A stretch of DNA of 61,965 bases, the filler included, from Jimgerdemannia flammicorona (taxonomy: Eukaryota), in NCBI GenBank assembly GCA_003990765.1. It is 3 parts of 3 records of this genome, joined end to end, with 100 filler letters (N's around TTAATTAATTAA, not from the genome) between each part and the next. Parts side by side here need not be neighbours in the genome. Positions count along the whole stretch, not along the records: positions 1 to 20,593 come from RBNJ01001642.1; 2 more parts are not named here. One strand, written 5' to 3'. Position numbers and translations under genes: made by a program. Below are positions 6,401-29,812 of the stretch, piece by piece (position 1 is the stretch's first letter; every line of letters starts with the position of its first letter). Under the pieces are notes generated by a model. That model was not told the DNA's origin. It saw only the letters and a list, made by a program, of their open reading frames with translations, and made no database searches.

Positions 6401-7060
6401 TAGAGATGAGTTTGTCTTCTATTGGACAAGATAGCTATAAATGACTTCTGCTTAGAGGATGGTATAGAGTATCTTCAGAAGTAGGGGAGAGATCTATGAC
6501 CCAAGATATAGTAGAGAGTGGAGATTGGTGAGAAGTAGGACTGGAATAATATTTGGTTATGGAGCAAGCAGACAGTGCAATGGATCTCCCCCAAGTTCTG
6601 AGTGGCATGGTGAAGACTTTTACAGTACAATGTTATATTGAATTATTAGTCAAGTCACTTGGTAGAAGGAGATCCTCAGGAGTATAAGAAGTATCTGAAT
6701 GTTGGGCAGGAGAGAGGAGTGGTATAAACTTCTAAATATTGGCTTAGAGAGTATAAGATATTGGGGGACTTTTGGAAGATAATTGAGATATAGTTGAGAG
6801 TATATTCATCAGGGCTAGAGATAGGAGTGAGGTGGGGTGACCTCCAGGAGAGGCTAGTAGATGGGGTGAAAAATGAGTAGTTGACTTTAGGGTGGGTACT
6901 GGCAATTTGGATAGGGCTTGTAGGATATTGGCTGTATATATTTGAAGATAGCAAATAGCTGACTTTTGGGGTGAGAGTTATTAGATGAGAGTGGCTGATG
7001 ATGGACCTTCTGAATGGGTGATGGAGAGAGTGAAGAGCTGGGGGTATGGTGCAGGGGAGA
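3413..7060 (+). mobile_element. Decayed L1/Tx1-like LINE: ORF1 end plus near-complete ORF2 (APE endonuclease, RT, C-terminal Cys/His region)
   Basis: Collinear with 29813-31392 and 26961-28601. It has the remnant EN start (LFFEYQ/LNING-like, ~3545), GRDFN, QGDLLS, and WKVGAFADN (~5617-5643). Many stops. Confidence 0.9.
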
Positions 7061-7474
7061 TGAAGTACAGGGGAGGTGGGAGGATTTGAAGGATAGATTG
7101 GTAGGGGGGATTGGGAAGGAGTGGCTTACTTTGGGTTGGGCTTTGGCTATTTGAGTGGGGCTGGCCAGTTATTGGCAATTTGTTTTTGAGGATGGGAGGA
7201 GACAGGACTTGGGAGACTGGTTGCTATGGTGGCATAGGCTTATGGAAGACACCTTAACAGGCTGGTGGCTTGGTTGGGGGCTGCAGGGTGGTCAGAGGTG
7301 CTACTTAGTGGAGAAAATTTGTGGGCAGAGTGGGGGGAGAGTCAGAGTAGTTGGGGAAAGGGTGATTTTTATTCATGAAGAGGTGGGGAGGGGCCCCCCT
7401 ATGGAGATTGGGTAGTGGGTGGGGATGATGTATACTTATTCATAGACTGGTAATAAAGGCAGAGTCCAAGTGAC

Positions 7475-7545
<71 letters not shown>
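7060..7545 (+). mobile_element. Younger 5'-truncated LINE 3' fragment with ~68-nt poly(A)
   Basis: Repeats the region just upstream in less decayed form and is close to the reverse complement of 26487-26920. Ends AATAAAGGCAGAGTCCAAGTGACTAT plus an A-tract (7478-7545). Confidence 0.85.
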
Positions 7546-7550
<5 letters not shown>

Positions 7551-7662
7551 GCTCTCTTAGAGAGATTGAGTAGGAGGTCAGATAGTTGTATATTATATAT
7601 TATATTAATATAGATTGGTTTGATAATAAATGCAAATGTCTGAGTAACTATAAAAAAAAAAA
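7546..7662 (+). mobile_element. LINE extreme 3' end with poly(A), probably the displaced tail of the 3413-7060 copy
   Basis: AATAAA...GTCTGAGTAACTAT plus A-tract at ~7652-7663, the family terminus. Confidence 0.7.
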
Positions 7663-7899
7663 ACTATATTCTAAAATACTATCTCTCTCAATAGATCTCC
7701 TAAACCTCCTTTTGTTTTCAAACTTATCTTAATATCTATTATCTCTTACTTATCTTAATTCAACTCAATACTCAATATCTCCTTATATATATACTATACT
7801 TCTCTCTACATTATCATAATATTCTTTCTCTTATTAATTTAATTATTATATAATCAGTAAATATACTTAGTAATGAGTGATCATATGACCCAGTGATGA

Positions 7900-8557
7900 T
7901 GTTACAATCCAGTAGCATATGATAAATATAATAATGAGATATAAATGATAAGAACAATGTAGATAAATGATACCCAGATTAACTCCAGCAATTGGCACTG
8001 TAGTAATCACTGCAGCAACTGAATATTATCTAACAACAAACAAAGGTTACAATTATAAATCTCATTCATAGTTACCAAATTAGTCACTCATACTTAGTCA
8101 GAAATTATAAACTAACTTGTATAAATACCCCCCAGTTTCTATCTGAAATAAAACAGATTTAGTTCAGTCCTTGATACAAGAATCAAATACCCCCTCCATA
8201 CACACACATTCTTCTAAGTCTTAGTAATAACACCTAAGTGACTCTAGTATTTCTAACTAAACTCCAAAAGTCTAGCTAACTTCTACCATAACTGAGACTG
8301 GTATATAAATTCCAAAGACTTAAGTAAACTCTTTATTGAATCTGATTTCCAAGGTAAATTCAATCTGTGCACAGCAAAGAACAAATCTCTTATAACTATA
8401 GTTATTAAAAAGAGTACTATTGCTATAACTACTTTCAAGTAAGTGCTTCCTCATACTGGAGGCTTCTTGGTATACTTGTATACTAAGTCTCTAAGTAATA
8501 CCTTATTTCTTTAATTATCTAAAAGATAAGAGAGGGGTAGAAATAAGAGTTATTATA
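7900..8557 (+). repeat. Putative 5' LTR of the second Gypsy family
   Basis: TG start, TATAAATA and AATAAA motifs (8120-8152), PBS immediately downstream. The local motif ACTTGTATAAAT.CCCCAG is shared with the solo LTR at ~35860-35880. Confidence 0.6.
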
Positions 8558-8643
8558 ACTTGGTGGTAGTGAAATTACTAAGCCAAGATAGTGTCAAGAA
8601 CATACTCTTGAAAAGTTGGAACAAGACCAACCTTAGACAGAAG

Positions 8644-9010
8644 TAGTACTCCCAAAATGAATATTTGAATCAATTCAAAGTAGATATATATGGTATTTGA
8701 ATCAAATTGATTCAATTCAATTCAAACATTGTTTTGATTTCCAAATTAGAACACAAATGTTTACCTCAATAACTCTATGAAGTTTTATCCGATTTTGGTA
8801 ATCTTGGTGTTATTGGAAAGGGATTATAGAGAGCCTTCCAAGGACACTAGTTTCATTAATATTGGATGAAAACTCGTAGAGTTATTGAGGTAATTATTTG
8901 TGTCCTTATTTAGAAATCAAAATAATGTTTGAATCAAATCAAATCAATTTGATTCGAATACCATATATATCCACTTCAAATTGATTCAAATATTCGTTTT
9001 GGGAGCACTA
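8644..9010. mobile_element. 367-bp palindromic hAT-type MITE with 8-bp TSD
   Basis: Termini TAGTACTCCCAAAATGAATATTTGAATC / GATTCAAATATTCGTTTTGGGAGCACTA. The arms are complementary almost to the centre. Exact direct repeat GACAGAAG at 8636-8643 and 9011-9018. Confidence 0.93.
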
Positions 9011-9130
9011 GACAGAAGTAACTCCAGAATTCCCAAGGAACAAATCCATGAACCAGAGCCCATCTAGCATTAGCCACCAGAACTAGGTAGTATCAGGAAA
9101 ATACAGACCCAGGGCTATATCAGCTTCTGA

Positions 9131-9859
9131 TTTTTTTTTTTTTATAGTCACTTGGACTTTCTTTATTAATACTCCAATCTAATCTCATAATAATACACTG
9201 ACCCCCACCCCTACCCAATCCCCCTGGGGGGTTCACTCTCTATTCTATTATAATGAAAAACTACTACCCCTTTACTATCTCTGCCCACCTACTACTTTGC
9301 TTGCAGATCACTTCTACTAGTTGGCAACAGTATCTACTCTGTAGGCCCCATCCTACCCACTACTCTGATATAATATCCCCTATTAATCTTTTTCATCTTA
9401 GCTATCTCTCCCTCTTACTTAACTACTGCTCCTCCTTAAATACATAAAGCTAATGGCCAGCTAATCCTACCTATACTGCTAATACTCACCCTAAAGTGAG
9501 CTATTCATTATCTATACCTCCTACAAACCTCTCCCTCAGATCCTCCCAATGACCTCTCTCCCCATCTGCTCTCCTTCTAATACTGAGTTAATCATCTATT
9601 TCTATCTAAAAGTCCCCCAGAACCTCACACTCTCTCAGCCAATGTTCTGATATTTGGACAAAACCCTCCATCTGACCCATATTGTAGCACTTCTCACAAT
9701 CAAAGAGCCCTCCATCTACCAAGTACCCAGAGTGGAAATTCAATATGACATTCTGTCTCAGCATTCACTACTATGCTCTCTGGAACTTAGGGAGAAACCA
9801 CTGCTATACTTCAGTACTCTATGATCAGACTTCTGTCCAGTCTCACTTCTCTCTAATCT
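9131..9859 (-). mobile_element. 5'-truncated LINE with poly(A) and 16-17-bp TSD
   Basis: Poly(T) then ATAGTCACTTGGAC at ~9131-9157. TSD CTATATCAGCTTCTGA(T) at 9115-9131 and 9860-9876. Confidence 0.92.
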
Positions 9860-12800
9860 CTATATCAGCTTCTGATCAATAAGACATACAGAGATCTATA
9901 TGAGGTCTTTAAGAACTACCACCCAGGCTTTAGGAATGTAAGCAGCTATTGCAGATTCTATATTATTATCCATAATTATATGGAGGTTACTAGAACTCAA
10001 GAATCTACTACTGCTACTATCTAGGAAATTTTAAACTATATCTCAATATCTTCTTCTGCAGCAAGAGTAGTAGCAGCTGAGTAGATTGCATTTGATAGTT
10101 ATCATTATACTTCTATCTGAACCTCTCTCTACTACTGGCTTATTGTATACTATACCACTACTATATCAAGATATGAGAACAAACAGACAGATCACTCACT
10201 CTCTATTACTGATCAAGAAGTAGATCCATCTATTTAGCCAGAATCTGATATCTTCTTTGAAGAACAAGAACACACTATCTCATCAGGAAAGAGAGTCAGA
10301 TGAAGACTCTACAGGATACTAGTCTGATGATAGCCAATAAGGAACAGCAGGCCAAGGAATTTACTAAGAACTTACAGGTCAAGAAGATCAGACCCCAGAA
10401 CTAATCCAGGCATTTATATAGAGATTTGGTTTACTAACTCTTACAGGACTTTTTGATCTGATCTTTGGAAATCAAGTAATCCTAAGTTATGTAGTACTAC
10501 AACCTCATCAGACAGAATAGTCTTCAGGAGAATCTACCCCTACAGGCCCACTATTAGTAGCTAATACAATAGTAGATACCAATATTCAGGCCCTAACTGT
10601 CCAGCTAGCCACAATAGTCGAAATAGTAGGATAATTGTCAAATAGAACAAACTAACCAAGACCTTGAGAATTTCTACTTTTAGTAAAAAAACAATGACAT
10701 TGAATCCTTCATAAATACAATAGATATATAATACTGAGCAAATCAATAGAATGATAACCATTTATCTACAGAGATGCTTAACAATAATAGAGATAATACT
10801 CTTCAACAGTTGTTTGTCACATTAGTAATATAAGTGGAAATAGTAGTCATATTCTTTACTAGAATAACAGCCAAGTTCTGGTACACTCTAGAAGAATACT
10901 CAGTACCTAAAAAGACTGTCCTCAAGTCACTAGACAGACACCTGGCCAAGCCAGACCAGGTTGGGATGACTATATAGTAGGCTTAGGACCCAAGACCCTA
11001 CTATTGACCAAATTCTGAAATATAGTCTATATATAAGAAACTTGGAATAAACTAGCCCAGATGAAGTTCCACAAGAATAGTGAGGAGGACCTAGAAATCT
11101 TTACTACTAAGATGGATACTTACCTTAAAACCATAAGACTTACTTATCAGAAAAATAATTTAGTCATCAATGATATTAGGGCCAACTATCTTTTTGCAGT
11201 CCTATCAGACTGACTCACTTGGAAGATTAAGGAATAAGGCCTCTTCCAAGGATGTCTCCACTACTCATAGTGCTTTGCTTAGATATAAAGATGAGTCTGC
11301 AAAATCCTTGTTGTACAGACCCTACAAAATCCAGAATACAAGAAAGATAACCAAGTTAGAAGAAATCCCCCAGAATGACTAAAGAAATAATCAGAGAAAT
11401 GACCAAAGGAACTAGTGAACCCCCAGAGGACCCAGACCTCCCAATGAGGATAAAAAGAAGCAGCTCTGTGAAAAAAAATTATACTTTATTTGTAAGAAGG
11501 CAGGACATATCTTCTTCAAATACCCTGAGAAGAGAAACAAATCAGATAAACCCAATAACCAGAACATCCCCATTATTGAAAAAGAACCAAAAAAGAAAAA
11601 TTCCAAGAATGTTATTAAAGTATAGAAGATATGGTATAAGGCTATCATTTTCACTAAGACCTATCCTACTGATACTAGATATGACCTCTACAGTAGCCAA
11701 GACCTCACTATTCCACCAAGTACTAATACTATAGTATATATAAGAATTATAATACAAGCTCTCAAAGGAATATATATCTACCTTGCTGAGCAAAAGTAGT
11801 CTGGCCAAAGAATTCAATATTGGGCTAGGAGGAGGAGTAGTTGACTAAGAATTTACTAGAGAAATCTAGATCATTTGTGAAATTTGGGAGATACCTCATT
11901 TGAAGTCAAAGTAGGCTAAAGAATTGCCTAAGTAATTATTGAAGAAATCTATCAAGATCTCACTATTGCAGAAGTCCCCAAGCTCTCCCAGACAGACTGT
12001 GGTAAGAAAGAGTTTAGATTAACTAATAAACCTCTCACTCAAAAGATTACCACTATAAAGAAAGATGATGAAAACTGTTATAAGAGAATTGTAGATAGTT
12101 ATGTATCATGTGGACAATACCCTCATTCTATCTGAATATACTATATAGAACATATTGGCAAATGCTATACATACCTCTCTAAAGTTTTCAAAATCCAATT
12201 CAAGAAATACTAAGTCTAATAGACTGAGAAATTCAACCCAGACCACCCTCCTTATGAAGGATGGAAAGAGACTGACTTTGAGAAGACTGATAGCAATTGA
12301 GATAATGAGGATAAAGTACTCAATACCATCAAGAAGGAAGACAGTTGCATTAAGTTTATAGGCCAAGTTTACAGATAGAATGTCAATGTCTTACTAGATA
12401 GTAGTACTACTAAAAACTATATTAGTACCAAGACTATTAAGAGGATTGGAGCCCAAAGTAGACCAGCTACTGAGAAAAGAAGTATCACCTTTGGTGATGG
12501 CAAGACTACACCTTTGATCAAAATCTATAAAGACCTACTGCTCAAGATTAGCAAATACTAAGAAAAGTTTAATTTTAGCATTATAGATCTTTCAGAATAA
12601 GATATTATCCTAAGAAAGACCTGGTTGACCCAGTATAACCCAGGACCAATGAGGTTAACTTAATCTATAAAGGTAGAAAAATCACCCTGTTATCTCAGAA
12701 GAGTACCAGCCATCAAGAGATCAAAATCATTTCAGCAATTCAGATGAAGAGACTCTTCTACAAAAAAGAGAACACATACTTCATCTGCACTATATAAGAA

Positions 12801-13589
12801 GTTACTGAAACCCCAAGTAGCTCAGTTCTACAAGAAGCTCAAGAGCTATTTAAGAAATTCTAAGATATATTTTAGGAGCTCAGAGGACTTTTACCCAGCA
12901 CCAAATCCAATATGAGATTGATCTTATTCCAGGATCTGAACCTCCATACCAGAATATCTACCAGCTGGCCCAACCTGAACTCAAGATCCTCAAGGATGAG
13001 TTGACCAAACTACTGGCCCAAGGATATTGAATCCAGCTGTTCTCTATTTGGAGCCCCCATCCTATTTATCAAGAAGAAGGATGACTCCCCACAAATATGT
13101 ATTAACTACAGAGCTCTCAATAAGATTACCATCAAGAACTAGTATGCCTTGTCTAGGATTGATGAGTTGTTACACCAGATCTTCAAGGCCAAGACCTTTT
13201 CCCTACTGGACTTGTGAAATGATTACCACCAGATCCTCATTGATGAGAAGGATGTTAAAAAGACAGCTTTCCAAACATGGTTTGGACACTACCAGTTCTG
13301 AGTCATGCCTTTTGGCTTGATCAATGCTCCAGCAACATTCCAATACCTGATGAATGATATCTTTGGACCACTACTCAACATTTGTGTCCTTGTATATATT
13401 GATGATATACTAATCTACAGTGAAACAGTGGAACTACACTACACCCACCTCAGGCAGGTCCTGACCCCTTCTGTGAGAACACCAGCTCTATGCAAAGATT
13501 AGCAAGTGCAAGTTCTATCAAGACCAGATTGAGTATCTAGGACATATCATCTCTATTGAAGGCATCAACATGGATCCCCGAAAGGTACG

Positions 13590-14472
13590 GACCCGCCAAC
13601 TCTGGGCTCCAGGAGGAATTCGTGTTCACTATCGCACCGACTGCTCCCAACCCGAATCCATCTCCCAGAACATCCTCGAGTGCCCTATCTGCTCAAACAA
13701 CTACCCCGGTGATGATACATTTCACTTAGCTGCAAGCACTCCTTCTGCCGCTCCTGTGCAGCATGGTACATCCACAATGCCATGGAGTCGTGCACTTTCC
13801 CATACCTATACCCATGCTGCAAGTCCTCCGAGACCTGAGATCCCACAGCACAATGATCCTCTCCATTCTGAGTGAAAAAAACCAAGTTGTCTGGTTGGAG
13901 ATGGAGCGCGAGCGCAGCATCACAAGCGACAGTGCGGTCAAGTGCGTCTATTGTCAGAAGGGAAAGTGCGAGAAGCCTTTGAGGCCGGCGTCGTAGACGA
14001 GACGGAGAGGCTGCCCCATGTGTCGTGTCCGTATTGTGAGCACGATTGATGGCTTTATACGTGGCATTAGGGCATCTTCCGCGCCAAATACCAGCGGTGG
14101 AAGACCAATAATGGGAAGGCAGACGAGCTGACAAATAAGATCGTGTTGGAGAAGGAGTATAAACGGTGTCCAGGCACATATATATATATATCACGTCTGT
14201 GTGGTAATGGTCTTGTTCGGCATATACTGATGGCGTTTGTCCTTTCTTTATTTTATTTATATTTTATTTGTAAACAGGCCCTAATTGCAGATAGATCATT
14301 GAGAAGACTGTCGCTTGCAATCATATGAAATATACCCAGTGCGAAGCACACTTCTGCTATCTCTGCGGTAACATTCTTCTTCACCAAGTCCAATGCGAAG
14401 CGTGACATTGACACCGCTGTTGCCAGCCATTACAGAGGTTGTGCCTTGTTCGACATTCTGAGCAAGCAATGA
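13590..14472 (+). pseudogene. RBR-family (RING1-IBR-RING2) E3 ubiquitin ligase pseudogene fragment with one intron
   Basis: Stitching frames gives RING1 ECPICSNNY...LSCKHSFCRSCAAWYI...FP..PCCK and IBR CVYCQKGKC...VSCPYCEH...WH*G. RING2 reads KRC|PNCR*IIEKTVACNHMKYTQCEAHFCYLCG across a GT-AG intron (14168-14277, branch-like TACTGAT). The tail is GCALFDILSKQ*. Several frameshifts and in-frame stops (e.g. TAG 14292-14294). Confidence 0.9.
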
Positions 14473-15139
14473 AATGAGGGAAGTGTGGCTGTCGGTGTTT
14501 ATTGTGTTTTTATTTTGGGTTTCGCCTGCGTAGAGATTCATCGTGTCTTTATATATCTGTGGAATAAATCGCCGACACTGCTGCTGTACCGTAAACTTCG
14601 AACTGGATCAACATGACGATAGACTGTTGTGCAGGACAGAGAATGCATTGCTTACCTCGCCATATGCGTAGAGCTACGTGTCGTACTTCACCCCTGTCAG
14701 TTTTGTGACTTCGAAATTGCGGTGCGGACACAAGCAGTTAGGTACGTGGAAATAGACCTTTACCGCCATTCTTATCCTTTCTTATCGAGGTCGCATGCAT
14801 CTTCGACCGCGGTGTTCAAACCTTAAATGCCTTAACGAAGTTATCACTTATTCATGCATGTACCAATATCAATATGTCAATAGCGACGGCTTTGGTTGTT
14901 GTCAGTGATCTTCTTTTGGCCAACAAAAAGGACGAACGCTTCAGAGCGTATTTATCATGTGGAAGATGCCATACCTTTCGAGAGACCCTCTGTTATATGT
15001 CGTGGACTTGAAATGTCGAGAGGATGATTAAGGTTATGTTGGAAAGAAGCCTGCTGGTTCCAAAAATAAGTATTGCGAATAGTTTTTTTTTTTTTTTTTC
15101 CGAGCCTGCTTACTCACTATTTTTTGACCGGTTCCTTAT

Positions 15140-15199
15140 GCCAGTCTTGGTTGCTTTTAAACCAACTGATGAGCCCCTTGAGCGAGGGTGAAACCGGTC
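15140..15199 (+). ncRNA. Type III hammerhead ribozyme (copy 1, partly eroded)
   Basis: GTC (15144-15146), stem I TTGGTT/AACCAA, CTGATGA (15166-15172), stem II GCCCCTT-GAGC-GAGGGT, GAAA (15190-15193), stem III CCAG/CCGG with one mismatch. Confidence 0.85.
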
Positions 15200-15782
15200 T
15201 ATTCTAGGGCATCTCTATTCGGTGGCGTTTACACATATTTTATATATATGTAATTTATTTATAAAGAATAAAAATTTAAATCGGACGCATCAAACACGTG
15301 TGTTGTTGATTAAGCTTCAAGGACCATTACTGTAAAGTGCCATTTGTGATCTTCCACTATTCTCATCATAGATGGCTCTTCGGTATATACTACTCAGCTT
15401 CTTCAATACGGGCAGTTCTGTAATGCGGCGGTGCTGGCTTTCGTCATTCTTGCTTCGCTCAGGCGGTCTTTCTCTGTCGTTATCGAGGGGTGTTTGTCAG
15501 CAACTGTTGCGTCTTCATAGTGTCCTTGCCAGTTACTATCACTATTGACTAGTCGGCGTTTGAAATCGCGTTTATCTCAGGCTGCTTGTTGTTATCATGC
15601 AAGAGGTACTCTATTAACACTTAATCTTATTGAAGAAGGTGTGTTGGCTTGTGGGTTATGTGGGAATGTGGGTTTGTGCAGTGTGGTTGTGGGTTTGTGT
15701 CTTGCGTGGTTGGCTCATATGGATGCGAAACAGAGTATAATGGATTCGATACTCACCTCATGCATCTCTCCCTCCTCTACAG

Positions 15783-16635
15783 ATACATACACAGATGGAG
15801 GAGACTCTTACGCCATATGGTGAAGGCGCTTCCCGCAATGCCATCTCGCACTATATGGTGAAGATGCTTCCGCGCCTCCTGACCAAATACACCAAGGACG
15901 TGGCACTTATTGCCAATCGTCATTATCCCGCAGCTCATGAACCTCAAAGTTTACCTTGACCTCTGCATACTCAAAGCCTATGAGGCCTTTCTAGGTGACA
16001 TGTTGTATCATGTGGCCAGGTTGAGGGAGGAATGTGAGGGGAAGGTTAGGTTCATCTCTGTTTTTGTGCGATTGGTGGGTGGTCATTATGGATTACGACG
16101 TCGAATGTGATAAGGGAGAGTTGGGGTACGAGGAGGAAGAACAGGTGCGGTTTTATATTTGCTTTTGTTTGCGTGTTGCATTTGTGGGTTTCTGGATGCT
16201 AATGAATTTTTAACCCTCCTCAGATTGTTTCAGACATCAACACTCTTCGCCAGTATCTCGTGTGGAGGTGCCATGTCATCCAGCCTGGGGAGCCGGGCCA
16301 CAACAGGCTATCGAAGAGTTTAGGGAGCATTGCGACTGGGCTCTCGACGATTTCACCAAACTTACCGTCGGGAATGGGGTCTGGGTTTGGAGGCAGCGAA
16401 GAAGGTGGTGGAGGTTTTTTTTTTTTTCATCGCGGTGGGAAGGTGAGAATCGGTTAACTGACATGTTTGTGGGCACCCTCCTTGTCTTCCTATTCTTAGG
16501 CATTCAGGGCCCTCGGCGAACCCACTGGCACTTCTTGACCTGTTCCAGTAGCCCAACTCGTCAAACATGCAACAGCTGTGCTTGACCTGCCTGGTGTCAT
16601 TCTGTAGGATTCATCGAATAGCAGATAGTTTGGTC
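15783..16635 (+). pseudogene. SCC3: Cohesin subunit Scc3/STAG (Psc3/Rec11-like) internal fragment, with introns, frameshifts and internal deletions
   Basis: Reconstructed peptides: RNAISHYMVKMLPRLLTKYTKDVALIA / IVIIPQLMNLKVYLDLCILKAYEAFLGDM; KGELGYEEEEQ|IVSDINTLRQYLVWRC; AIEEFREHCDWALDDFTKLTVG; LEAAKKV|AFRALG; GFIE*QI. They resemble successive HEAT-repeat segments of STAG/Scc3, recognised from memory of the family. GT-AG introns at ~16145-16223 and ~16408-16499 have branch motifs. Confidence 0.78.
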
Positions 16636-17189
16636 ACTACGTTGCACAGTTACGACGCAATGGTGATGCGGGCAGCCGAGGGGTCAACTGTTCCTTTTAT
16701 GGAGATCAGTCAGTGTAGAGATAGGTGGTGAGGTCTCAACCCGATGTTTGAGAATATATCTATAATAACTTAGCAATGGCCTAAAGATCGAGTCATTCAG
16801 GTGAGTAATGGACCACAAGGCATTTGAACGGGAAACCCGTATGAATATATATATAAAATATATTATATACTATATATTTTCTTAGATATTATATTTATTA
16901 TATAATATCAATGAGCATGAAGACATTAGGAGTAAAGACGCAACACAGGGAGCGCAAATACGAGCACCATGTGTAGTCTTTGGGTGTTTACTGCTCGTTT
17001 TTTTCGAGAGCTCTCCCATCATGGTATAGCAGCGAGTTTACCAAACTCCAAGGTTACAATGTTACGACTATACGAGCAACTAGCCACCCGAACTATACTA
17101 CATCACGCACTCGCCATGCACACTATGCACACGCAACCGGCGGCTTCGACAATATCCCGGTAGACAATCTCACGCACACATCCATCCAT

Positions 17190-17770
17190 TCAAGCGACGA
17201 CATTAGCATTAGCAACCTTGTCGGCGATGCAGCGTGGTTATTGTTGACATAGTAAGCCTGGTCGCAATCCTCGCACAGGTTGGCGGCGACATGATTGCAA
17301 TTCTCATAGGTGACATTGTAGCATTTCTGGTTGGCGCTGTTGCATGCAGCGTTGTAGTCGACCATGCAAGGAGCGCAGGCACCGCAAGCGCCGAGTCTGT
17401 CATAGGCCCCCCAAGTCATAGGGGTACCCATACCCATAGCCGCCCCATTGCTTGTTGTGAACAGGGTCATGTCACGCCTTTTGAGGTATCCGAGGCCGGC
17501 GCAACTGTAGTCGCAGGCTCCAAGACAGCCATAAGGGAGTTGACCACAGGGGAAACCGCAAGCACCGGGACTGTCGAAAGGGAGTCCGTTAGCTGCAAAG
17601 GCACCGCAGGGGAAACTGCAAGCGCCAAGACCGTCGAAAGGGAGTCCGTTAGCTGCAAAGGCACTGCAGGGGAAGCAGCAGAGTTTGCACGCATCATCGA
17701 GACAGCGCTCATTCAGGTCGTGAGTCCGGGCCTCGCTGGTGGGATCGCAGATGCTTAAACACATCGTCAT
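17190..17770 (-). pseudogene. Cys/Gly-rich, probably secreted repeat protein with Kex2-type dibasic site; frameshifted at both ends or 5'-truncated
   Basis: ORF 17123-17770 has 20-aa repeats (FPCxAFAANGLPFDxxGAC), a KRR site and an Asn/Cys-rich C-terminal part. A shifted frame gives ASA-IP before TSEARTHDLNER (signal-cleavage/propeptide-like). Another shift gives a natural end ADKVANANVVA* (stop 17190-17192). Confidence 0.65.
17545..17680. repeat. 60-bp coding tandem repeat, ~2.3 copies
   Basis: GTCGAAAGGGAGTCCGTTAGCTGCAAAGGCAC.GCAGGGGAA recurs at a 60-bp period. Confidence 0.9.
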
Positions 17771-18203
17771 TCTTCTTCTGCACTATAACCGGATTCGAAT
17801 GCTGAGCTGGCGAACGTACCTTGCACCAGGTCTACTGAAATGCAACCTGGTAGGCGCCAAAGGGGGCGAATGGCAAATTTGCAGCCAGGCGGTCTCTACA
17901 TTATAATAAAATCCCACAAACAATCTGAGGATGAGTGGAGATCAGGCCAAGATGGTGAAAGATGGCGGTGGGTAGTTCTGGCTCTGACTGACCTTATTAA
18001 CTTTGGCGTCCCAACCGATATGACGAGAATGGCTGAACCCACATCGCTGCCAAAAGACCCTTGTAGCAGCTGGTACCGACCCGAATGTCGCATTGAATAG
18101 TTGTCGAGTACTGGGTATTTCCTGTGGATGCCAAAGACAAGGACGATTGGACTGTGCAGTTATAATGCCATTGCCCTCCACCTCATTGAGATGAGGTGTC
18201 GCG

Positions 18204-18350
18204 GGACTCGAAGGATGTTGACGTGAACGTGTGGACTCAAAGAATGTTGACATGAACACGTGGACTCGAAGAATGTTGATGCAAATGCGCAGAGTCAAAG
18301 GATGTTGACGCAAACGCGTGAACTCGAAGGATGTTGACGTGAACGCATGG
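18204..18350. repeat. 29-bp minisatellite, ~5 copies
   Basis: Unit approx. GGACTCGAAGGATGTTGACGTGAACGTGT, contiguous and diverged. Confidence 0.85.
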
Positions 18351-18551
18351 ATCTTGACACGAATGGGTACACAATGTTCTAGACAAACAAAAAATAAAAC
18401 TGTCAACAGTAGGCTTTGAAAAGGTAGTCCAAACTGGCACATTTTAAAGATCGCTTTATTCTTTTAAATAATTTTATTTCTAAAATATATGTATTTATTA
18501 CAAAACGGTTGGCAACGACCCAGTTGGAATCTTGTTGGAATCTTGTCGGAA

Positions 18552-18617
18552 ACGGCGGGTTTCGCCCTTGCTTAAGGGGCTCATCAGTTGGCTGTAAAAG
18601 CAACCAAGACCTGCCGT
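18552..18617 (-). ncRNA. Type III hammerhead ribozyme (copy 2, core intact)
   Basis: Minus strand reads ACGGCAG-GTC-TTGGTTG-CTTTTA-CAGCCAA-CTGATGA-GCCCCTT-AAGC-AAGGGC-GAAA-CCCGCCGT. All core nucleotides are present, with a 7-bp stem I, a G-C-closed stem II, and a 9-position stem III with one A-C mismatch. Predicted cleavage is between 18608 and 18607. Confidence 0.92.
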
Positions 18618-18880
18618 GGATGCAAGTAAGCTCTCACTAGAGAGACTCCATTGCAGAGCCACTGGCGGCCCAAGAATGTGAGTGTTTCGGTCAAGCATAA
18701 ACAGTACTCGAAGTGAAGAAATAGTTTAACTACTTATCTTAACAGTGAAGAGTTCAACCTGCCACGGGCGTTCGATATATTTATCAGGTGTCCGATTTGT
18801 TGCGCCATATCATTGGTGGTGACGTCTTTCAGATCATCATCCAATTAAAATAGCACGATTTCGATGACATTGTACAAACC

Positions 18881-19083
18881 AACGCCATTCATGCGTTTCA
18901 GTAATGTCATAGGATATGGGCGAATACCATTCATGCGTTTCAGTATATGCCATAGAGTATGGGTGAATACCATTCATGCGTTTCAGTATACGCCATGGAA
19001 AATGGGCAAATACCATTCATGCGTTTCAGGAATGTCATAGAATATGGGCAAATACCATTCATGAGTTTCAATGTATGCTATAG
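18881..19083. repeat. 42-43-bp minisatellite, ~5 copies
   Basis: Unit AATACCATTCATGCGTTTCAG(T/G)A(T)ATG(C/T)CATAG..TATGGG(C/T)(G/A). It is followed by a 22-bp duplication GGGGTTGAGA(T/C)GACAGGT (19083-19122). Confidence 0.9.
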
Positions 19084-19274
19084 GGGTTGAGATGACAGGT
19101 ATTCGGGGTTGAGACGACAGGTGGTAGAGTGCGATCACCATAGAATACGGCGAGAGAACCCATTAAATAAATAGATTAAATGATGAGAGAAATTGGGGCA
19201 CTTCATCGAAACGCAAATGCAAAATGCAGTTCGTAGAGTGAAATGCATGTTAGTTGTGACATTCTAGCCCCTGA

Positions 19275-19394
19275 AACAGACTAACGCCCAACGCCCAACG
19301 ATGGACTAATGCCCAAGACAGACTAATGCCTAAAACAGACTAACGCCCAAAACAGACTAACGCCCAAAACAGACTAACGCCGATGCCCACTGTG
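19275..19394. repeat. Array of ~17-20-bp AAACAGACTAACGCCCA repeats ending in CACTGTG; possible DNA-transposon subterminal region
   Basis: About six copies of CAGACTAA(C/T)GCC, ending GCCCACTGTG at 19385-19394. Confidence 0.7.
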
Positions 19395-19833
19395 TGGCAG
19401 CACGTTCAAGTTAAGTGGAAGAAGGCATGCGAAAACAGTGTTAGCTAGCAAGGAGTAGAGAAATGTATATATAATAAATATGAGGATCGTGGAATGAATA
19501 AAGGTAGTTCTTATCGGAATTTAATTGCTCAAGTGGAAAGACAGGAATTCGGAGGGACCAGCAAGGGAAGTACATAAAGCTAAGCTATATTGGTTCAGCC
19601 AGTAACTACAATTGATGTATTTAGTACATTGCCTATTTATTTATTTACATATTTATTTATTACATATTTTCACTCTAGGAAACACGAGGTCATGTCTATA
19701 TGCAAGTTTGATTCTTGCTCGTTTTCCCTTTGGTGAGACGTGCCTCGTGTTTCGAACGCCTCTATTGTGATGTCATATGGCGAACAAACCGCTCAAAAAA
19801 TCGTGACTATCGAATTTGTTAAAATCACTTGAA

Positions 19834-20849
19834 TAGTGCTCTGAACAAGTCAGTTCAAATTGGTTCAAATTGTGATGGTTTCTGATTCGAACAATTCAAA
19901 TCAATTTGAATTATGACTGCTCTAATTCAAATCTTCAAATTTGATTTGAATATCTGATTCAAATATCTGATTCAAATAGGAACCAAATTGCCCATGCTCC
20001 ACTCTATCACATGATTTACTATCATATATAAACAGAAGAATGTGTATGCGAAACACTTCTATACATAAGTATATATACATTATATCAATGGCAATAAGTC
20101 AGTCATCAATATTTCGCAATACTGATGATTTGTACTTCAAGTCAGACTTCTTTAAACACTGTTTAGACTTCTTTAAATAGCATTCTATACTATGCTCCTT
20201 ATTCTGAAGTTTAGTAATATTATACCAAAACTGATAAAAATAAAGTCTCTTACAAATATTACAGGTAATTTGTTTTTTTTTTTAAAAAATAAAAATAAAA
20301 CTTATAATACTTAGATATATTTATAATTTGCTTAATATATGTGTAAATTTTTTAAAAAGTATAAGATATATGATAGTTCTATTATAAATATAATAAGATA
20401 TATAAAAGCTCAATATTTAGATAAAATAGAATTGAGTATAGTATTAAGTAAAATTGATATTTCAGTTATATATAATAAGTAGATGTTCTATCTCTTATTT
20501 TAGTATAGATTTAAAAATATATCTTTTATATATCTGAAGTTTTTCTTTTTTTTCTGAAAAATAATTCAGCTATATATCATACTTTTTTTTTTTNNNNNNN
20601 NNNNNNNNNNNNNNNNNNNNNNNNNNNNNNNNNNNNNTTAATTAATTAANNNNNNNNNNNNNNNNNNNNNNNNNNNNNNNNNNNNNNNNNNNNGATCAAT
20701 CCGGATGGATCAATCCGGATGGATCAATCCGGATCAATCCGGATCAATCCGGATCAGATCACGAGACCAATCCGAGTTGATTCGAATCCATCACATGACG
20801 AATCTGAATCGAATCTCACCTGAATCAACTCCATTCGTTCGGAGCACTA
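19834..20849. mobile_element. hAT-like non-autonomous element end(s) on either side of the contig linker
   Basis: Left TAGTGCTCTGAACAA (19834) and right TTCGTTCGGAGCACTA (ends 20849) share the TAGTGCTCC terminus with the 8644 MITE. Subterminal GATTCGAA/GATCAATCCG repeats. No matching TSD, so these may be two elements. Confidence 0.6.
20594..20693. other. Artificial contig linker / gap
   Basis: N44-TTAATTAATTAA-N44, which gives stops in all six frames. Confidence 0.97.
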
Positions 20850-21970: not shown

Positions 21971-22132
21971 ACTGAGTTATGCCAGCACCAGCATTCTGAT
22001 GTAACACTGAGTTATACCAGTACTGGCATTCTGATGTAATACTGAGTTATGCCAGTACTGGCATTCTGATGTAATACTGAGTTGTGCCAGCACTGGTATT
22101 CTGATATAATACTGAATTATACCAGCATTCTG
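21971..22132. repeat. 35-bp tandem repeat in LTR, ~4.5 copies (also 35071-35232)
   Basis: Unit ACTGAGTTATGCCAGCACCAGCATTCTGATGTAAC, no spacers. Confidence 0.9.
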
Positions 22133-22519: not shown

Positions 22520-23827
22520 CAAGATGAATCCCTCACTTTTAAGCTGAAAAACAAATAACCCCACAACAACTACCCTGACTACAAGAGTCACCCCTGCAAG
22601 AATTCAAGACAAGATGGAAATACACCCCTCCACATTCTATAGATATACTACTGAAGAGTTAATCCTGACCTTCATTGAAGACTTTGAACAATTCACTGCC
22701 ATATGAGCTCCTGGTGTAGATGTACAATTGGCCCTTCTACCAGTCAGCCTCGAGACAAGTTCAATACAACCACTATTGCTAATAATAGTGCAGCCAAACT
22801 TGCCAACATAAAGGCCTTCCTCAGAACAATATACTATACTGAAGAGATCAAGCAAGCTCTCAAAGATCAACTCAACACTATCTGCCAGAGACTCAGTGAA
22901 GATCCCAACTCATTCTATATCTGAATCTGCCACCAGATTGTCCTGGCTAGCTATGATGATGCCCTCAAGGAACAAATAGTAGATTCAACCTTTCTCAAAG
23001 AAGTTTACCCTGAAATTGCCCTAGCAATCTGGTTTACTCCAGCTACACTGACCCTTGATCAGAAAGTGGTCTTTGCACAGAGATATTGGACTGCCAGACA
23101 CCCTGCCAAACACTCAATGGAGAAAATAACTGGCATCAAGATGGAGCCATCAAAACCAACTAATATTATACCTGCCACAGTTGTAAACAGACAACCATCC
23201 CCACCTACCCCCAAGACTGCCAAAGCTGACCCAGTGGAGGAACTCACCAAGCAGTTCACCAAGATGACTGCATACCTTGGTGATGTTGTTAGAGAAGTCC
23301 AAAGTGCTAACAGGAGACCAGTGCAGAGATTTGCAGCTGCTACAGAAGAACACAATATCACATGCTTCAGATGTGGAGAAGAAGGCCACTATGCAAAGAA
23401 TTGTATGACCAAAACAAGACACAAAGCCCAACCAAGCAATGCTAGCAGAATCAGAGAACAAACTAATGCAGTAGTCATCGAGAAGATTGGCAATACTGAT
23501 GATGAAGAATACTATGAGGAGCTTGAATTCTACCCTATTACTAAAGGTACCAGAACCTGGTCCAAGCCCTATGACAAGAAGAGCAACAGCAAGCCAGTTG
23601 GAAGACCAAAGAAGACCCCAGCTGTCACTATTCAAAGCAAGACTCAACCTGAGGAGATTGATCAAGACATGGAGTTAGATGAAGCTGCCCACCAAATCAT
23701 TGAAGGCACTACTCCAGTCTCAGAAGAAAGTGAAAGCAAGAAGGAACAGAAGCTGTATAAGACCAAGATCTACCAGTATGATATCTACAAAGACCTCAAG
23801 GAACAGAAGCTACTTTTGGACAGCTAG
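22520..23827 (+). pseudogene. gag: Gag with CCHC zinc knuckle
   Basis: CFRCGEEGHYAKNC at ~23363-23404. Upstream capsid-like segment is interrupted by stops. The 5' boundary is approximate. Confidence 0.85.
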
Positions 23828-23853
23828 CTGAAGTCCCTGCCTTCAGATAGCCA

Positions 23854-24330
23854 TTGAGAGTAGGACTTGCAACTACTGTCAAAAATCAAGAGTACAAGAT
23901 TGTAGAAGCTCACAATGCACAGGAAGAATCTGAAAACTCAGGTGAAGAATCTGAAGACCAGTGCAAGACATCAGCCTATACTCTATATCAGATCAAAGAC
24001 TGTATCTTTGATGTCATCATTGATACTGGTGCTGGAGGATGCCTCATGAGCAAGAAGGCAATTGACTGCCTAGGCTGGGGCATTGAAGAGTCCACCAAGA
24101 TAGTCTATGTTACAGCAGATGGTATATAAGCTACTCCCCTTGGCAAAATCCAAGAAGTCCCCATCAAGATAGGAGGAGCTACCATCCCAGTAGACATGAT
24201 TATTACAAGTACCACCAACTATGACATTCTCATTGGTAACCAATGGCTTCACAAGGCCAAGGCCATCATTGACCTCAATGCCCAGAAGATGCAGATCAAC
24301 TATAGAGGAAGAAAGGTATGAGTCTCTATC
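23854..24330 (+). pseudogene. Retropepsin aspartic protease
   Basis: FDVIIDTGAGGCLMS and YDILIGNQWL motifs. Confidence 0.88.
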
Positions 24331-24679
24331 AATGTCTACAAAGGAGTCCTACCAGATATAGAGGAAGGAGATGAAGAGGACACAGAGGTCTTCATGCACT
24401 TAGTGAACAAGAATAAGAATAAGATACCCAAGCTCACAGATGAGCAGTGGTACAACAAGGTCATCAATAGCTATGCCCCTCAAGAAAGATGCCCCCATGG
24501 TACTAAGATGTACTGCTCTGAACACCTGAATGACTGCTGGTCCTGTATCAGTGAAGTTAGGAAAATCTGCCAACAGAAACATAAGCAAGAAGCTATCAAA
24601 GCAAAAAGAAAAGCTGAAGAAGATGACCAGCCCCCAGAGCTTCAAGCTGACAGTGATGATGAGGAGGAACAAGAATCAG

Positions 24680-25110
24680 ATATCATCCTCAAGGTCAAGA
24701 AGTTCTACTCTGAAGCTAAGATCCCAGAATACAAGACTGAAGGAGCCATAGGAATGGACCTTACCAGCATTCAAGATGCTACTCTCAAACCACAGACCAC
24801 TACCCTACTTGGCACTGGAATTGGAGTCAAGCTGCTAGAGAACTATGCCAGAATTATCAAGACCAGGAGCAGTCTGGCCAAAAGCGAAATCTCAGTTAAA
24901 GGAGGAGTAATTGACTCTGATTATACTGGTGAGATCTTTCTCATAGTTAGGAATCACAACCCCACCACCCCATTTGAAGTCAAGAAGTATGACAGGATTG
25001 GCCAGATACTGATCCACGAAATCAAGAAACCCAAGATCACTAAAGCCATCAAACTCATTAAGACCAAGAGAGGAGAACAAGACTTTGGATCTACTGGAAG
25101 AGGAGCCTAT
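24680..25110 (+). pseudogene. dut: dUTPase domain within pol
   Basis: All five trimeric dUTPase motifs are recognisable: AIGMDL, RSSLA, GGVIDSDYTGEI, RIGQIL, RGEQDFGSTG. Confidence 0.93.
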
Positions 25111-25199
25111 GCTGTCACTAAGATTACTGAACTTGAATACAAGAAAGACAAGGACCAGAATAAGCACACATATACTCTTAGAGAAAACTTTCCCCTGGA

Positions 25200-26486
25200 A
25201 GAACAACTTCTCAAGATCCTGCACTAGAATGAAGGAGTACTTGCTACAGACTTCAGAGATATCTACAATCAAGAACCTAAGTACTACTACAAAGTTAACA
25301 CTGGTGATACCAAGCCCATCTACCAGAAAGCCAGACCCATATCACCTGCCTACAGAGAATGACTGTGAGCAGAACTTAAAGAAATGGAAGAAGCCAGAAA
25401 CATCAAGCAAGCTATCAGTCTCTGGGCTTCACCTATTGTTCTCACCCCAAAGAAAGGAAGCAAGCCTCAATGCCATTATCAAGAAGGATAGGCAGCCCTT
25501 GCCAAATATTCAAGAAATCCTTATCACCTTTGGAAGCAAAGCCAAATACTACACCACCTTGGATCTGTTCTCAGGCTTCTATCAGATTGATCTCACTCAA
25601 GATACCAGTAAGAAATCAGCCTTTATCACACCTGATGCCACCTACATTTATCTGCGAATGCCATTTGAAATGTGCAATGCCCCAGCAAGTGTTTAGTGAA
25701 TAATGAACAGAGTCTTCAGCAATGAGATTAGAAAATTGCTCTTTGTCTATGTTGATAATATGATCATCTTCAGCAACACTGCACAGAAACATGTCAATCA
25801 TATACAGCTAGCCCTTAAGAAGCTCAAGGAGCATGGCCTTTATATTAAGCCCAAGAAATGCAAGTTTGCAGCTCAAGAAATCATCTATCTAGGACACCTC
25901 ATCAACCAGACTGGAATCCATACAGACCCTATGAAGATTGAGGCTGTTGAAGCCTACCTGAGACCCAGAATGACTACAGAAGTCCATGCCTTCCTTGGAC
26001 TGGCCAGCTACTACAGAAGATTCATCAAAGGATACTCCAATATTGTAGCACCTATCTACAAGCTACTAAAGAAGGAAACCAAATTCAAATGGACCAAGGA
26101 ATGCCAAGAAACCTTCAATGAACTCAAGACCAGGTTGACCCAAGCATCTATCGTCAGAAGACCAGATTAGAACCTAGAATTTATCCTGCAGACAGATGCG
26201 AGTGCTATAGGACTTGGAGCAGTCCTAGCTCAGAAGAAAGATTGATATGAATATATCATCTTCTATCAAGCTGAGGTACCCATAGAGCAGAACAGAACTA
26301 TGAGTCATGTAAGCTCAAATGCTTAGTAGTAGTTTGGGCAGTAGACAAGTTCCACTACTATCTAGTCAGGAAATACTTCACTATTCAAACAGACCATTCT
26401 GCTCTTGCCTGGTTATTCCACACACTGAACCACAAAGAAATATATGTCAGATAGATATACAGACTGCAAGAGTATGACTATACTGT
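25200..26486 (+). pseudogene. pol: Gypsy RT and RNase H (RNase H resumes at 32363 after the LINE insertion)
   Basis: LDLFSGFYQI, MPFEMCNAP, YVDN (degenerate YxDD), FLGLASYYRRFI, LQTDASAIGLGAVL. NADALSR follows at ~32391-32411. Confidence 0.92.
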
Positions 26487-26960: not shown

Positions 26961-28601
26961 TCAAAAGTCACTAAGTACCTCGCACTCCCCTAACCAATGT
27001 TCTGGCGTCTGTACGTAACCCCCTTCCTGACTCACATTATAGCACTCCTCACAGTCAAAAAATCCCCCCTCGATAAGGTGACCCGAGCAGTAATTGAGCA
27101 TGACATTCCTCCTCAACATGTGCCACCAAGTCACCCAATACTTTGGTGGCATCCATCTTTTCACCTCAGCACTCCATGTCCAGATACTCCTCCAGTCCCA
27201 CTCCTCGCCAATTCCGACACCTTGCCAACCACTGGGCCACAGATCCTGGCCTGGTCCCCTCTGGCAGTCTATTCCATCACTAATGTCAAACTCAAGCAAT
27301 GGGACCCTGCCCAGTAGCACCCAGTCCCATCTCCACATCTCTGGGTCCCAATCCTCCTCCCCTTCATTTCCCTGCCAATGGATTCCGATGCAGTGTGCTC
27401 CCTCTGCTATCCCCCACCAGAAGCCTTTAAATCGCAATTGAGCAGTGTTCTGAAGTCCAACCAAAGACAGGAGATCGCCAGTTGAACCCCGAGGCACAGA
27501 CCGCCTCTCCCAAACCTTCTGCAATAGGGGAACCCAACCACCCCCTCTCAATTCTACGGCTCTCTTCAACCACCAAGCCCTTAAGCAGTGTAGCCTCTTT
27601 AGAAAGTCAACCAGTCTCAGTCCGCTGCTCGCCACTGGTAGGGACAAGACCTCCCAGCCTATCCGACTCCTCCTTCCAGCCCAGATCCATCTCTTGGCAA
27701 GCTTCAACAGCCTCCTTACCACCCAGGGTGGAAAATCCAGATGGTACACCAGATACCACAACTTCGGTAACCAGTAAATGTTCAAAATTGTAACACGCCC
27801 TGCCAGGGACAGGTGATGGCCCCCCCAGCTCCACAGGGCCTCTCCCCAGATGCCAACCCACTGCTCCCACCAAAGCCTGGGTAGTACCAACCCATACACC
27901 GAAAGATAGATCCCCAAGTACTGCACTGCCTCACCAGCAGGGACAACCATTCCGATAATCTCTCCACCCACCAGACCATTGCCAAGCACCATTGTTTCGC
28001 ACTTATGCCAATTAAGTTGCGCTCCAGAATTCTTCTCATACCACTCCATTGTCTCCTTAAGCTCCTCAACATCTGCAATTGATCCCAATCTGACCACCAT
28101 GTCATCTGCAAAGGCCCCCACCTTCCACTCAATGCCAAAAATGGAGAGCCCCCCTATCTTCCACCTGATTCTATCCAATAGTGGTTCCAGAGAGAGAGCA
28201 TACAGAATGGGGGACAACGGGTCCCCCTGGGGTACCCCCCTGCCCAGGGGAAAGGCCACCCCTCGATGTCCATTACATATGAGTGCCGCCCGACTCCCTT
28301 CCAGTAGACTGACCATTGCTGACCGGAACTGATGCGGAACCCCAGCCCTATCCAAAACTTTCACCAGCCAACCTTGCCTCACCTGGTCGTAAGCCTTCTC
28401 CTGATCCAAGAAGACCAGATGCCCATCCAATCCACAAGCCCATGCCTCTTCAATAACACTATGTACCCAGGCTGTGCCATCCCTAATGAGCTGTCCCCCT
28501 ACAAAGCCCCTCTGCTCAATGCCTAAGATTTGCTGCGCCACCTTTTGTAGTCTCGCAACCACCACCTTAGTAACCAACTTCCTGTCCATATCCAGGAGCA
28601 T
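26961..28601 (-). pseudogene. LINE ORF2 RT and C-terminal Cys/His domain (546-aa open stretch)
   Basis: QRGFVGG, FLDQEKAYD, GVPQGDPLSP, AFADD, YLGI, LSLAGRV, CEEC...EHWLGEC. Confidence 0.93.
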
Positions 28602-28640
28602 TATCAGCCTCCAATTCTTCCAGTTCTCTCACCCTCCTTT

Positions 28641-29778: not shown

Positions 29779-29812
29779 AGATGGACTGGATAAAAAAACA
29801 CTATACGTCAAT

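Follow-up and report, generated by a model that had tools for sequence, protein, structure and literature searches.

Two hammerhead ribozyme motifs of related sequence face each other on opposite strands of record RBNJ01001642.1 of Jimgerdemannia flammicorona (assembly GCA_003990765.1), and the question that they raise is whether they form the two ends of a single element or are separate copies of a short repeat. The stretch of DNA analysed, hereafter the window, is 61,965 bases long; the + strand copy is named A and the − strand copy B, and the two face inward from about 3.4 kb apart. The answer offered here, which is held tentatively and a little short of an even chance, is that A and B are independent, oppositely oriented solitary copies, belonging to different subfamilies, of a many-copy, retrozyme-like short repeat. 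The features on which this answer draws are observed directly: the motifs and their anatomy, an extra conserved block downstream of each, permuted relatives elsewhere, and the occurrence of the ribozyme core in many sequence contexts. The two motifs are located as follows.

15139–15199, + strand: hammerhead A, type III; 30.1 bits against Rfam RF00008; GUC triplet at 15144–15146; predicted cut at 15146/15147; probably impaired.
18554–18615, − strand: hammerhead B, type III; 36.1 bits against Rfam RF00008; GUC triplet at 18610–18608; predicted cut at 18608/18607; predicted competent.

RF00008 is the Rfam covariance model of the type III hammerhead, and it was run both in gathering mode (48.5 bits) and in E-value mode. 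Copies A (E = 0.022) and B (E = 4.2e-4) are the best Rfam matches, and they make up two of the only three matches of any family with E ≤ 1 in the window. A preliminary description of this DNA had placed two hammerheads at these positions and on these strands and had suggested a covariance-model check; the check finds both motifs in E-value mode and neither of them at the gathering score, with the long loops 1 and 2 of A and B being counted by the model as insertions. The GUC positions agree with the cuts that had been proposed at 15146/15147 and 18608/18607. The two copies share 90.6% identity over 53 nt (blastn E = 2.8e-13). Pattern and Rfam searches found no third copy in the whole window, and when 14500–19200 was compared with the window by blastn, only local tandem repeats recurred besides the A/B match.

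The sequences CUGAUGA, GAAA and GUC are in register in both copies. Stems I and II are closed by loops and stem III is open, which is the type III topology. Stem I has 6 bp in A and 7 bp in B, with a closing loop of 6–7 nt, while stem II has 4 bp and a 9-nt loop in both. Counted outward from the core, stem III is paired at seven of nine positions in A and at eight of nine in B, in keeping with the earlier observation that its sequences differ with pairing retained. The chance of such pairing with random flanks is 0.017 for A and 0.0023 for B, assuming a pairing probability of 6/16 for any two bases. Between the two copies, positions 8 and 9 of stem III are changed on both sides and still paired, position 6 is changed on one side and still paired, and one A·C mismatch is common to both. 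With two sequences to compare, this covariation is suggestive only.

The copies differ in their predicted folding. Copy B has the usual G10.1–C11.1 pair, and its canonical three-way junction is the minimum free energy structure (−23.4 kcal/mol; z = −2.0); it is predicted to be foldable and cleavage-competent. Copy A has G10.1–U11.1 and a weaker stem III, and its canonical fold (−9.6 kcal/mol) lies 5.1 kcal/mol above a competing non-canonical minimum of −14.7 kcal/mol (z = −0.2). Judged by these folding energies, copy A is probably decayed.

Each motif is the upstream part of a somewhat longer unit, the remaining parts of which are listed below.

15200–15229, + strand: spacer of unit A, 30 nt, not alignable with the spacer of unit B.
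15230–15272, + strand: AT-rich block of unit A, ending in AAAGAATAAA, with a local alignment to the block of unit B.
18494–18553, − strand: 60-nt spacer of unit B, within which 11 nt are tandemly duplicated.
18455–18493, − strand: AT-rich block of unit B, ending in AAAGAATAAA, with an ATG 12 nt further on at 18442–18440.

The 43-nt AT-rich block stands 30 nt downstream of ribozyme A and 60 nt downstream of ribozyme B, and the two blocks are approximately 84% identical. Their local alignment scores 44, against 18.8 ± 2.5 in dinucleotide shuffles (none of 300 reaches 44), and a pattern made from the first half of the block occurs without mismatch at these two sites only, where 0.03 matches would be expected by chance. 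The upstream flanks of A and B, on the other hand, align at chance level (score 16, reached by 173 of 300 shuffles). The earlier statement that the flanks do not align outside about 55 nt is therefore correct upstream and has to be given up downstream. Since the block is conserved behind both ribozymes, the unit can be put at approximately 135–165 nt, made up of hammerhead, variable spacer and AT block. The block contains UAUAUA-like and AAUAAA/AAGAA-like elements, which recall yeast-type 3′-end signals; it may resemble a fungal poly(A)/terminator (3′-end) signal or, equally, a TATA-type promoter.

Relatives of the ribozyme were found outside the window in a rearranged form. Metagenome contigs scanned with an 18-mer that covers stem I and stem II gave 12 loci, among which locus L005 is the sole true hammerhead, present as two identical copies 530 nt apart; the other 11 were rejected as relatives, being chance matches to the 18-mer without a hammerhead. 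A scan of genome contigs returned one locus, L013, a 523-nt contig with two hammerhead copies 394 nt apart. This contig is filed under the bacterium Demequina iriomotensis, and no further copy of its hammerhead was found in that assembly; as it stands alone there, it is probably a contaminant. Viral contigs, scanned with two patterns, gave no match.

All 11 strictly conserved core letters are present in A, B, L005 and L013, and stem II with its loop is nearly identical in the two foreign loci and the window copies. The order of parts is different. In L005 and L013 it runs from the 3′ strand of stem I through CUGAUGA, stem II and GAAAC-CG-GUC to the 5′ strand of stem I, so that stem I is open, which makes the motif a hammerhead of type I; its stem III, of 2 bp, lies within the palindrome ACCGGU. 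The type I forms end in GAAACCGGUC, and copy A has kept this ending. The rearrangement is visible in BLAST alignments, where the adjacent segments 302–314 and 315–350 of L005 map to window positions 18599–18611 and 18558–18593 in swapped order. Stem I of L013 shows a compensatory change, with UCGG/CCGA where the others have UUGG/CCAA. L005 and L013 have only the 55-nt ribozyme in common (93% identity). As judged from the order of its parts, the window ribozyme is a circular permutation of the type I hammerhead found in tandem repeats of 394 and 530 nt. The non-LTR (long terminal repeat) retrozymes of animals are defined by just such a type I hammerhead in tandem units a few hundred bases long, as reported in PMC7229834 and PMC4209133. 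As a side observation, the 530-nt unit of L005 also carries a segment resembling the Alu domain of the signal recognition particle RNA (SRP, 7SL; 468–644 and 998–1174, minus strand; Plant_SRP, 22.1 bits, E = 7e-4, far under gathering).

The surroundings of the core were followed in two small public runs coded as the same organism, X1 and X2, which were analysed as contigs over 14900–18900. Contigs with the ribozyme core depart from the window sequence at 18558 (7 in X1, 9 in X2), at 18611 (3 in X2) and at 15122 (2 in X1, 3 in X2), and the consensus of their loose ends shows an agreement of only about 0.5–0.7. In many contigs of both runs the core is joined to unlike sequence, so that it occurs in many contexts. 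The 22 bases immediately upstream of A also recur in X1/X2 contigs, so that A is not the only member of its subtype. Breakpoints of some contigs fall within loop 1 (18593), in agreement with relatives in which stem I is open. When contig depth is summed over the ribozyme bins, it comes to 559/607 for A and 3633/3558 for B, compared with approximately 17–45 over 16910–18383; such a sum is not a copy number, and it gives a hint of high abundance of the core. The intervals 14900–15033, 18384–18517 and 18786–18900 have no cover by X1/X2 contigs and were not used as evidence. Among 40 listed differences between the window and the runs (there are 78 more), 15 are A>G, 12 of them after C, and 14 are T>C, 8 of them before G; the differences are mostly CpG decay, to judge from these 20 of 29 A>G or T>C changes among the 40 listed.

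A branch-point-like GCTTACT precedes both hammerheads (15107–15121; 18637–18626 on the minus strand). In the run contigs this region reads CTTACTAAC. A CAG abuts the GUC triplet, an arrangement that recalls the intron of Drosophila virilis Penelope described as ending at helix I (PMC4209133). A 7-mer shared between such upstream flanks is not significant by itself. This bears on the one direct repeat that stands outside the pair.

15113–15119, + strand: left copy of the 7-bp direct repeat CTCACTA, 24 nt outside the GUC triplet.
18633–18639, + strand: right copy of CTCACTA, 7 bp, 22 nt outside the GUC triplet.

In the flanks searched, 0.43 matches of this kind are expected by chance, and the left copy overlaps the CTTACT(A/C)AC upstream motif of other copies of the repeat; for both reasons CTCACTA is probably not a target-site duplication. 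By eye, no flanking repeat was found around either single unit, the ends of which are not defined, and the 7-mer was the only one outside the pair. Copies A and B differ in stem III, in spacer length (30 versus 60 nt) and in upstream sequence. Two independent insertions are favoured because the ends differ in this way, because the inverted homology stops at the modules, because the core occurs in many contexts, and because the 7-mer is at chance level. The same evidence bears on the two possibilities that the preliminary description had offered. That a short ribozyme-bearing family was inserted twice agrees with the many contexts, the differences between A and B and the recurrence of the 22 bases upstream of A in other contigs; calling the family undescribed goes too far, as the same ribozyme is now known in type I form from tandem retrozyme-like repeats and is not wholly new in kind. 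A ribozyme-terminated unit that mobilises host cargo found no positive support, with homology limited to the modules, CTCACTA at chance level and ends that are too different for a single recent event.

If A and B are independent solitary copies, the repeat would be most like a non-autonomous retroelement of the retrozyme or Penelope pseudo-LTR (pLTR) kind. A transcript running through a copy would allow the ribozyme to fold and to cut after GUC, and this self-cleavage would leave a fragment with a 5′-OH end that carries the ribozyme body. A lone copy would release no unit-length RNA and form no circle, so A and B are most likely dead-end "monomer" progeny of a retro-mobile family. Solitary "monomers" spread evenly along chromosomes, with units of 51–972 bp, are described for animal non-LTR retrozymes (10.64898/2026.07.22.740005), and isolated hammerheads in solo LTRs are reported from plants (PMC4918200).

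Several points weigh against independent solitary copies. Both motifs score below the RF00008 gathering score. With two copies inside 3.4 kb and the remaining 58 kb empty of them, the clustering is stronger than in a thin random scatter, and both copies are directed inward, each followed by its AT block and then by an ATG on its own strand, which fits a gene- or transcription-linked role too. The evidence for a family consists of two window copies and two foreign relatives, by which boundaries, duplications and copy number are not fixed, and no autonomous partner with a Penelope-like reverse transcriptase (RT) and GIY-YIG domain was found in the window. The DNA or RNA nature of X1 and X2 is only guessed. 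Finally, one contig of X1 passes directly from 15247 to 15544, as does one of X2 from 15249 to 15416. These joins connect the neighbourhood of unit A with interior sequence in one further copy or allele at the least, and they could mean that the element is longer than the unit described above.

The interior itself has three features of note.

15741–15956, + strand: frame with a weak, unconfirmed likeness to the HEAT-like region of cohesin Scc3/SA (PF24571, 13.4 bits, E = 0.078; cut-off 25).
16843–16918, no strand assigned: low-complexity, (TA)-rich tract that divides the interior into two halves, with 16843–16875 flagged as a repeat.
17126–17782, − strand: 219-codon open frame that belongs, as a member or a relic, to a family of secreted repeat proteins rich in Cys, Gly and Tyr; its signal peptide is truncated in this frame.

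For the 219-codon frame, an exhaustive HMMER search of 1.84 billion representatives returned four relatives with E ≤ 1e-3, where a word-based protein search gave no match and no Pfam family was assigned. BLASTP aligned it with two of these, P0013 (E = 9e-15) and P0015 (E = 4e-10), over a module of about 45 residues. Three of the four relatives have a signal peptide, a Gly/Tyr/Cys-rich composition, KR sites and a repeated module of about 45 residues as in the window frame. P0014 and P0015 are named by their source as proteins of Endogone sp., a fungus. This single gene points, weakly, to a Mucoromycota-like fungus as the probable host. The relatives and the shared module substantiate the secreted-protein fragment that had been suspected between the ribozymes. 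The Scc3 fragment suspected beside it was not confirmed, the single Pfam match of 13.4 bits (E = 0.078) being accompanied by no PDB match to Scc3 or cohesin and by no homologue in the protein search. Frames starting at 15372 and 18442 have a likeness to signal peptides and are too short to judge.

In 142 frames of at least 30 codons over 14000–20593, no RT, GIY-YIG, endonuclease or transposase was found, the Pfam matches with E ≤ 1 being at noise level only. No direct repeats, and no inverted repeats beyond the modules of about 150 nt, link the two sites. No tRNA, as would form the head of a short interspersed nuclear element, was detected at 12000–20593, and a 12-mer for the tRNA-Met primer-binding site (up to two mismatches) occurred seven times in the window against 6.8 expected, with none at 12–21 kb. 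Repeat, primer-binding-site and Pfam searches therefore agree with the preliminary description that neither direct LTRs nor a Penelope-like open reading frame (ORF) for RT/GIY-YIG is visible. The left part of the interior occurs in the runs in several variants and deletion forms, with 15 joints listed. Two of these 15 (16042>16498 and 16141>16221) have GT..AG ends and might represent spliced RNA, which is not enough to call the runs RNA. As part of the independent-copies reading, and held just as tentatively, the 3.3 kb between the copies would be ordinary local DNA, a secreted-protein gene relic and repeated non-coding pieces, and not cargo. Local tandem repeats lie at 17543–17674, 18205–18380, 18885–19083 and 19287–19388; these include a 60-nt duplication inside the 219-codon frame, a 29-nt repeat present five times between that frame and B, and 43-nt and 17-nt arrays just outside hammerhead B.

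The alternative that survives best, although we regard it as unlikely, is that the two units are inward-facing "cut-and-stop" cassettes, in which a ribozyme followed by a terminator-like block would shield the enclosed genes by cutting and then terminating transcripts that come in, on either strand, from the repeat-rich outside of the 3.3-kb island, or else that each is the end of the 3′ untranslated region (UTR) of an outer gene. Both units face inward with the same order of ribozyme, spacer and AT block, the last ending in AATAAA; a + strand frame of 89 codons stops at 15011, with 128 nt between it and hammerhead A; and retrozyme copies overlapping exons in Xenopus are reported to lie mostly in 3′ UTRs (10.64898/2026.07.22.740005). 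No outer gene was found, however, the Pfam matches in the frames of 14000–20593 being noise as noted above. Tandem repeats occupy the outside of B, and A is predicted to misfold. The many contexts of the core also fit a mobile repeat better than a bespoke insulator.

Somewhat less probable still is a composite mobile element of about 3.5 kb, with the hammerhead modules as inverted ends and captured host sequence inside. The modules are indeed inverted towards each other, the 62 kb contain no further copy, the CTCACTA repeat lies outside both GUC triplets at nearly equal distance (24 and 22 nt), a relic of a secreted-protein gene is enclosed, and complex inverted insertions are described as typical of Penelope-like elements (PMC8557442). 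Against this, the inverted homology comprises only the core of 50–53 nt and the AT block, and the two ends are no recent twins, given that stem III, spacer and upstream sequence are different in each. A 7-mer with 0.43 expected occurrences, the left copy of which overlaps a motif of other copies, carries little of the burden of a target duplication. Summed depth over the core exceeds the interior value by about two orders of magnitude, which would leave most copies unattached to this interior (bearing in mind that such a sum is not a copy number), and no transposase or RT was found.

To the same low degree probable is the view that two convergent elements of approximately 1.5–1.7 kb meet at the (TA)-rich tract at 16843–16918, with a hammerhead trimming the 5′ end of each, as hepatitis delta virus (HDV)-like ribozymes do in R2 and other long interspersed nuclear elements (LINEs). 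The contigs of X1 and X2 that tie positions up to 15247 and 15249 to the interior at 15544 and 15416 would fit this view, as would the variants and deletion forms of the left interior among the 15 listed joints. Likewise, (TA)n is given as a preferred target of some Penelope-like elements (PMC8557442), and 5′ ribozymes that process retrotransposon RNA and aid its translation are known (cited in PMC13725137). A type III cut, however, loses the 5′ strand of stem III, and yet both strands were inherited here and co-vary. Neither half contains an RT, an endonuclease or another element protein, the right half contains a relic of a cellular-type secreted-protein gene, and the linking contigs may come from the same locus in another strain.

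Far less probable, and close to refuted, is the view that the locus is an endogenised DNA copy of a viroid-like, ambisense replicon with a circular RNA genome. Ambivirus-like replicons are of the same order of size as 3.5 kb, which was counted in its favour. It would also account for one type III motif on each strand, type III being reported as usual in infectious circular RNAs, including those of fungal ambiviruses (PMC13725137). The locus has no long or polymerase-like ORF, however, its longest frame being the 219 codons of a cellular secreted-protein family; the two viral-contig scans gave no ribozyme match; the contexts of the core are many and DNA-like, and its relatives are tandem genomic repeats; and what separates the window from the runs is for the most part CpG decay (20 of the 29 A>G or T>C changes among the 40 listed). 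Equally improbable is that the motifs are not ribozymes at all and merely a hairpin-rich look-alike repeat, for although both fall under the gathering score and their fold z-values are modest (−0.2 for A, −2.0 for B), the 11 strictly conserved core letters are kept in A, B, L005 and L013, stem I covaries in L013, stem III is maintained by different sequences, and the same parts occur in two circular permutations, each a complete hammerhead.

In the wider window, the three pieces of about 20.6 kb are joined by linkers at 20594–20693 and 41282–41381, each consisting of 44 N, TTAATTAATTAA and 44 N, so that adjacency across them is not real. Debris of LINE and LTR elements is found throughout. Positions 1–13578 form a nearly CpG-free block, as do 53975–55530 and 56854–59254; the CpG-less gaps measure 8789, 1623 and 2959 bases, in which approximately 414 CpGs would be expected in total. 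At about 13.5 kb, inside an RT fragment of an LTR retrotransposon, the observed/expected ratio of CpG jumps to 0.7–1.2. Since TpG and CpA are not raised, simple CpG deamination is not an obvious explanation of these blocks, and the edges of the CpG domains do not coincide with the hammerheads. Strong GC skew (±0.35–0.56) marks 3001–8000, 26961–31000 and 41382–58000. The latter two blocks coincide with LINE-like ORFs (Exo_endo_phos, RVT_1) with a G-rich, C-poor sense strand, and the ORFs in 3001–8000 have no Pfam match. An LTR-type element at 22925–26170 encodes gag (zinc knuckle), dUTPase and RT. Its two LTRs may be marked by a 35-bp tandem array that is found both at 21971–22127 and, 13 kb away, at 35069–35227, and a LINE RT is nested on the minus strand at 26961–28628.

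Among known systems, the LTR retrozymes of plants (PMC4918200) are alike in being described as DNA-encoded and non-autonomous, with type III hammerheads that occur mostly as isolated motifs and with only the ribozyme conserved. They are reported to have direct LTRs of 300–400 bp around a centre of 300–600 bp, whereas the window copies lack these, are inverted and stand 3.3 kb apart. Plant retrozymes further have, according to the same source, a tRNA-Met primer-binding site and a polypurine tract, a 4-bp target duplication and a plant host; at the window pair no primer site was found (the polypurine tract was not searched for), no target duplication was found around units the ends of which are not defined, and a fungus is the probable host. 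The animal non-LTR retrozymes (PMC7229834, 10.64898/2026.07.22.740005) resemble L005 and L013 in the features reported for them, namely tandem arrangement comparable to the 394- and 530-nt repeats, type I topology, a 4-bp stem II and a 2-bp stem III in ACCGGU, and both genome-wide solitary monomers and units as short as 51 bp have been reported for them (10.64898/2026.07.22.740005). The window copies are unlike them in not being tandem, in having type III topology with a stem III of 7–9 positions and an AT-rich tail, and in having no Penelope-like partner in sight.

Hammerheads in Penelope pLTRs, including those of the fungal Coprina type, likewise lie near the 3′ end or in the terminal repeat, and inverted, 5′-truncated copies are described as common (PMC4209133, PMC8557442). 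Minimal Penelope hammerheads are also closed at stem I, and the fungal ones are reported to be active as monomers (PMC4209133). The window copies differ in having neither an RT/GIY-YIG ORF nor telomeric repeats beside the motif, the RTs elsewhere in the window being of LINE and LTR type. They also differ in topology, as fungal Penelope hammerheads are given as type I with a long stem III (PMC4209133) and the window copies are type III. Viroid-like circular RNAs and ambiviruses (PMC13725137, PMC10237039) are described as sharing type III topology with one ribozyme per strand. The window copies, unlike them, are DNA-encoded and multi-copy, have no polymerase ORF and are known here as DNA. A parallel in a possible trimming of co-transcripts at the edge of an element is offered by R2 and other LINEs, which have HDV-like ribozymes at their 5′ ends (cited in PMC13725137). 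These ribozymes belong to another class, and a type III hammerhead, unlike them, leaves part of itself upstream of the cut.

In summary of these comparisons, the window copies work in the manner of retrozyme or Penelope-pLTR hammerheads, yet they lack the defining traits of each family. Where such ribozymes are encoded in eukaryotic DNA, type III has been reported from plants and type I from animals, type III belonging otherwise to infectious circular RNAs (PMC7229834, PMC13725137). Fungal reports comprise repeats in Yarrowia (PMC3088659) and a few type I motifs of Penelope elements (PMC4209133), in addition to RNA replicons. In the main texts of the literature, supplementary catalogues aside, no genomic hammerhead family in Mucoromycota was found, and titles and abstracts disclosed no fungal genomic retrozyme.

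Two window copies make the whole finding a good lead rather than a discovery. A bolder proposal, which is a long shot, would combine its parts: an early-diverging fungus may host a retrozyme system, of a sort otherwise reported from plants and animals only, in which one hammerhead occurs in both circular permutations, as type I in tandem repeats of 0.4–0.5 kb and as type III in solitary cassettes, the latter serving as inward cut-and-stop barriers that shield a small gene island with a secreted-protein gene in it against transcription from the repeats around it. The order of ribozyme and then AT block, leading into a gene island from both sides, gives a testable idea on ribozyme-assisted termination of transcripts. 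If the host is a Mucoromycota-like fungus, retrozyme-like elements would reach a third kingdom. If the preferred reading of A and B as solitary copies of a many-copy repeat is true, the clear homology between a DNA-encoded hammerhead of type III and one of type I in tandem repeats would show how readily ribozyme topology can be re-wired within one family.

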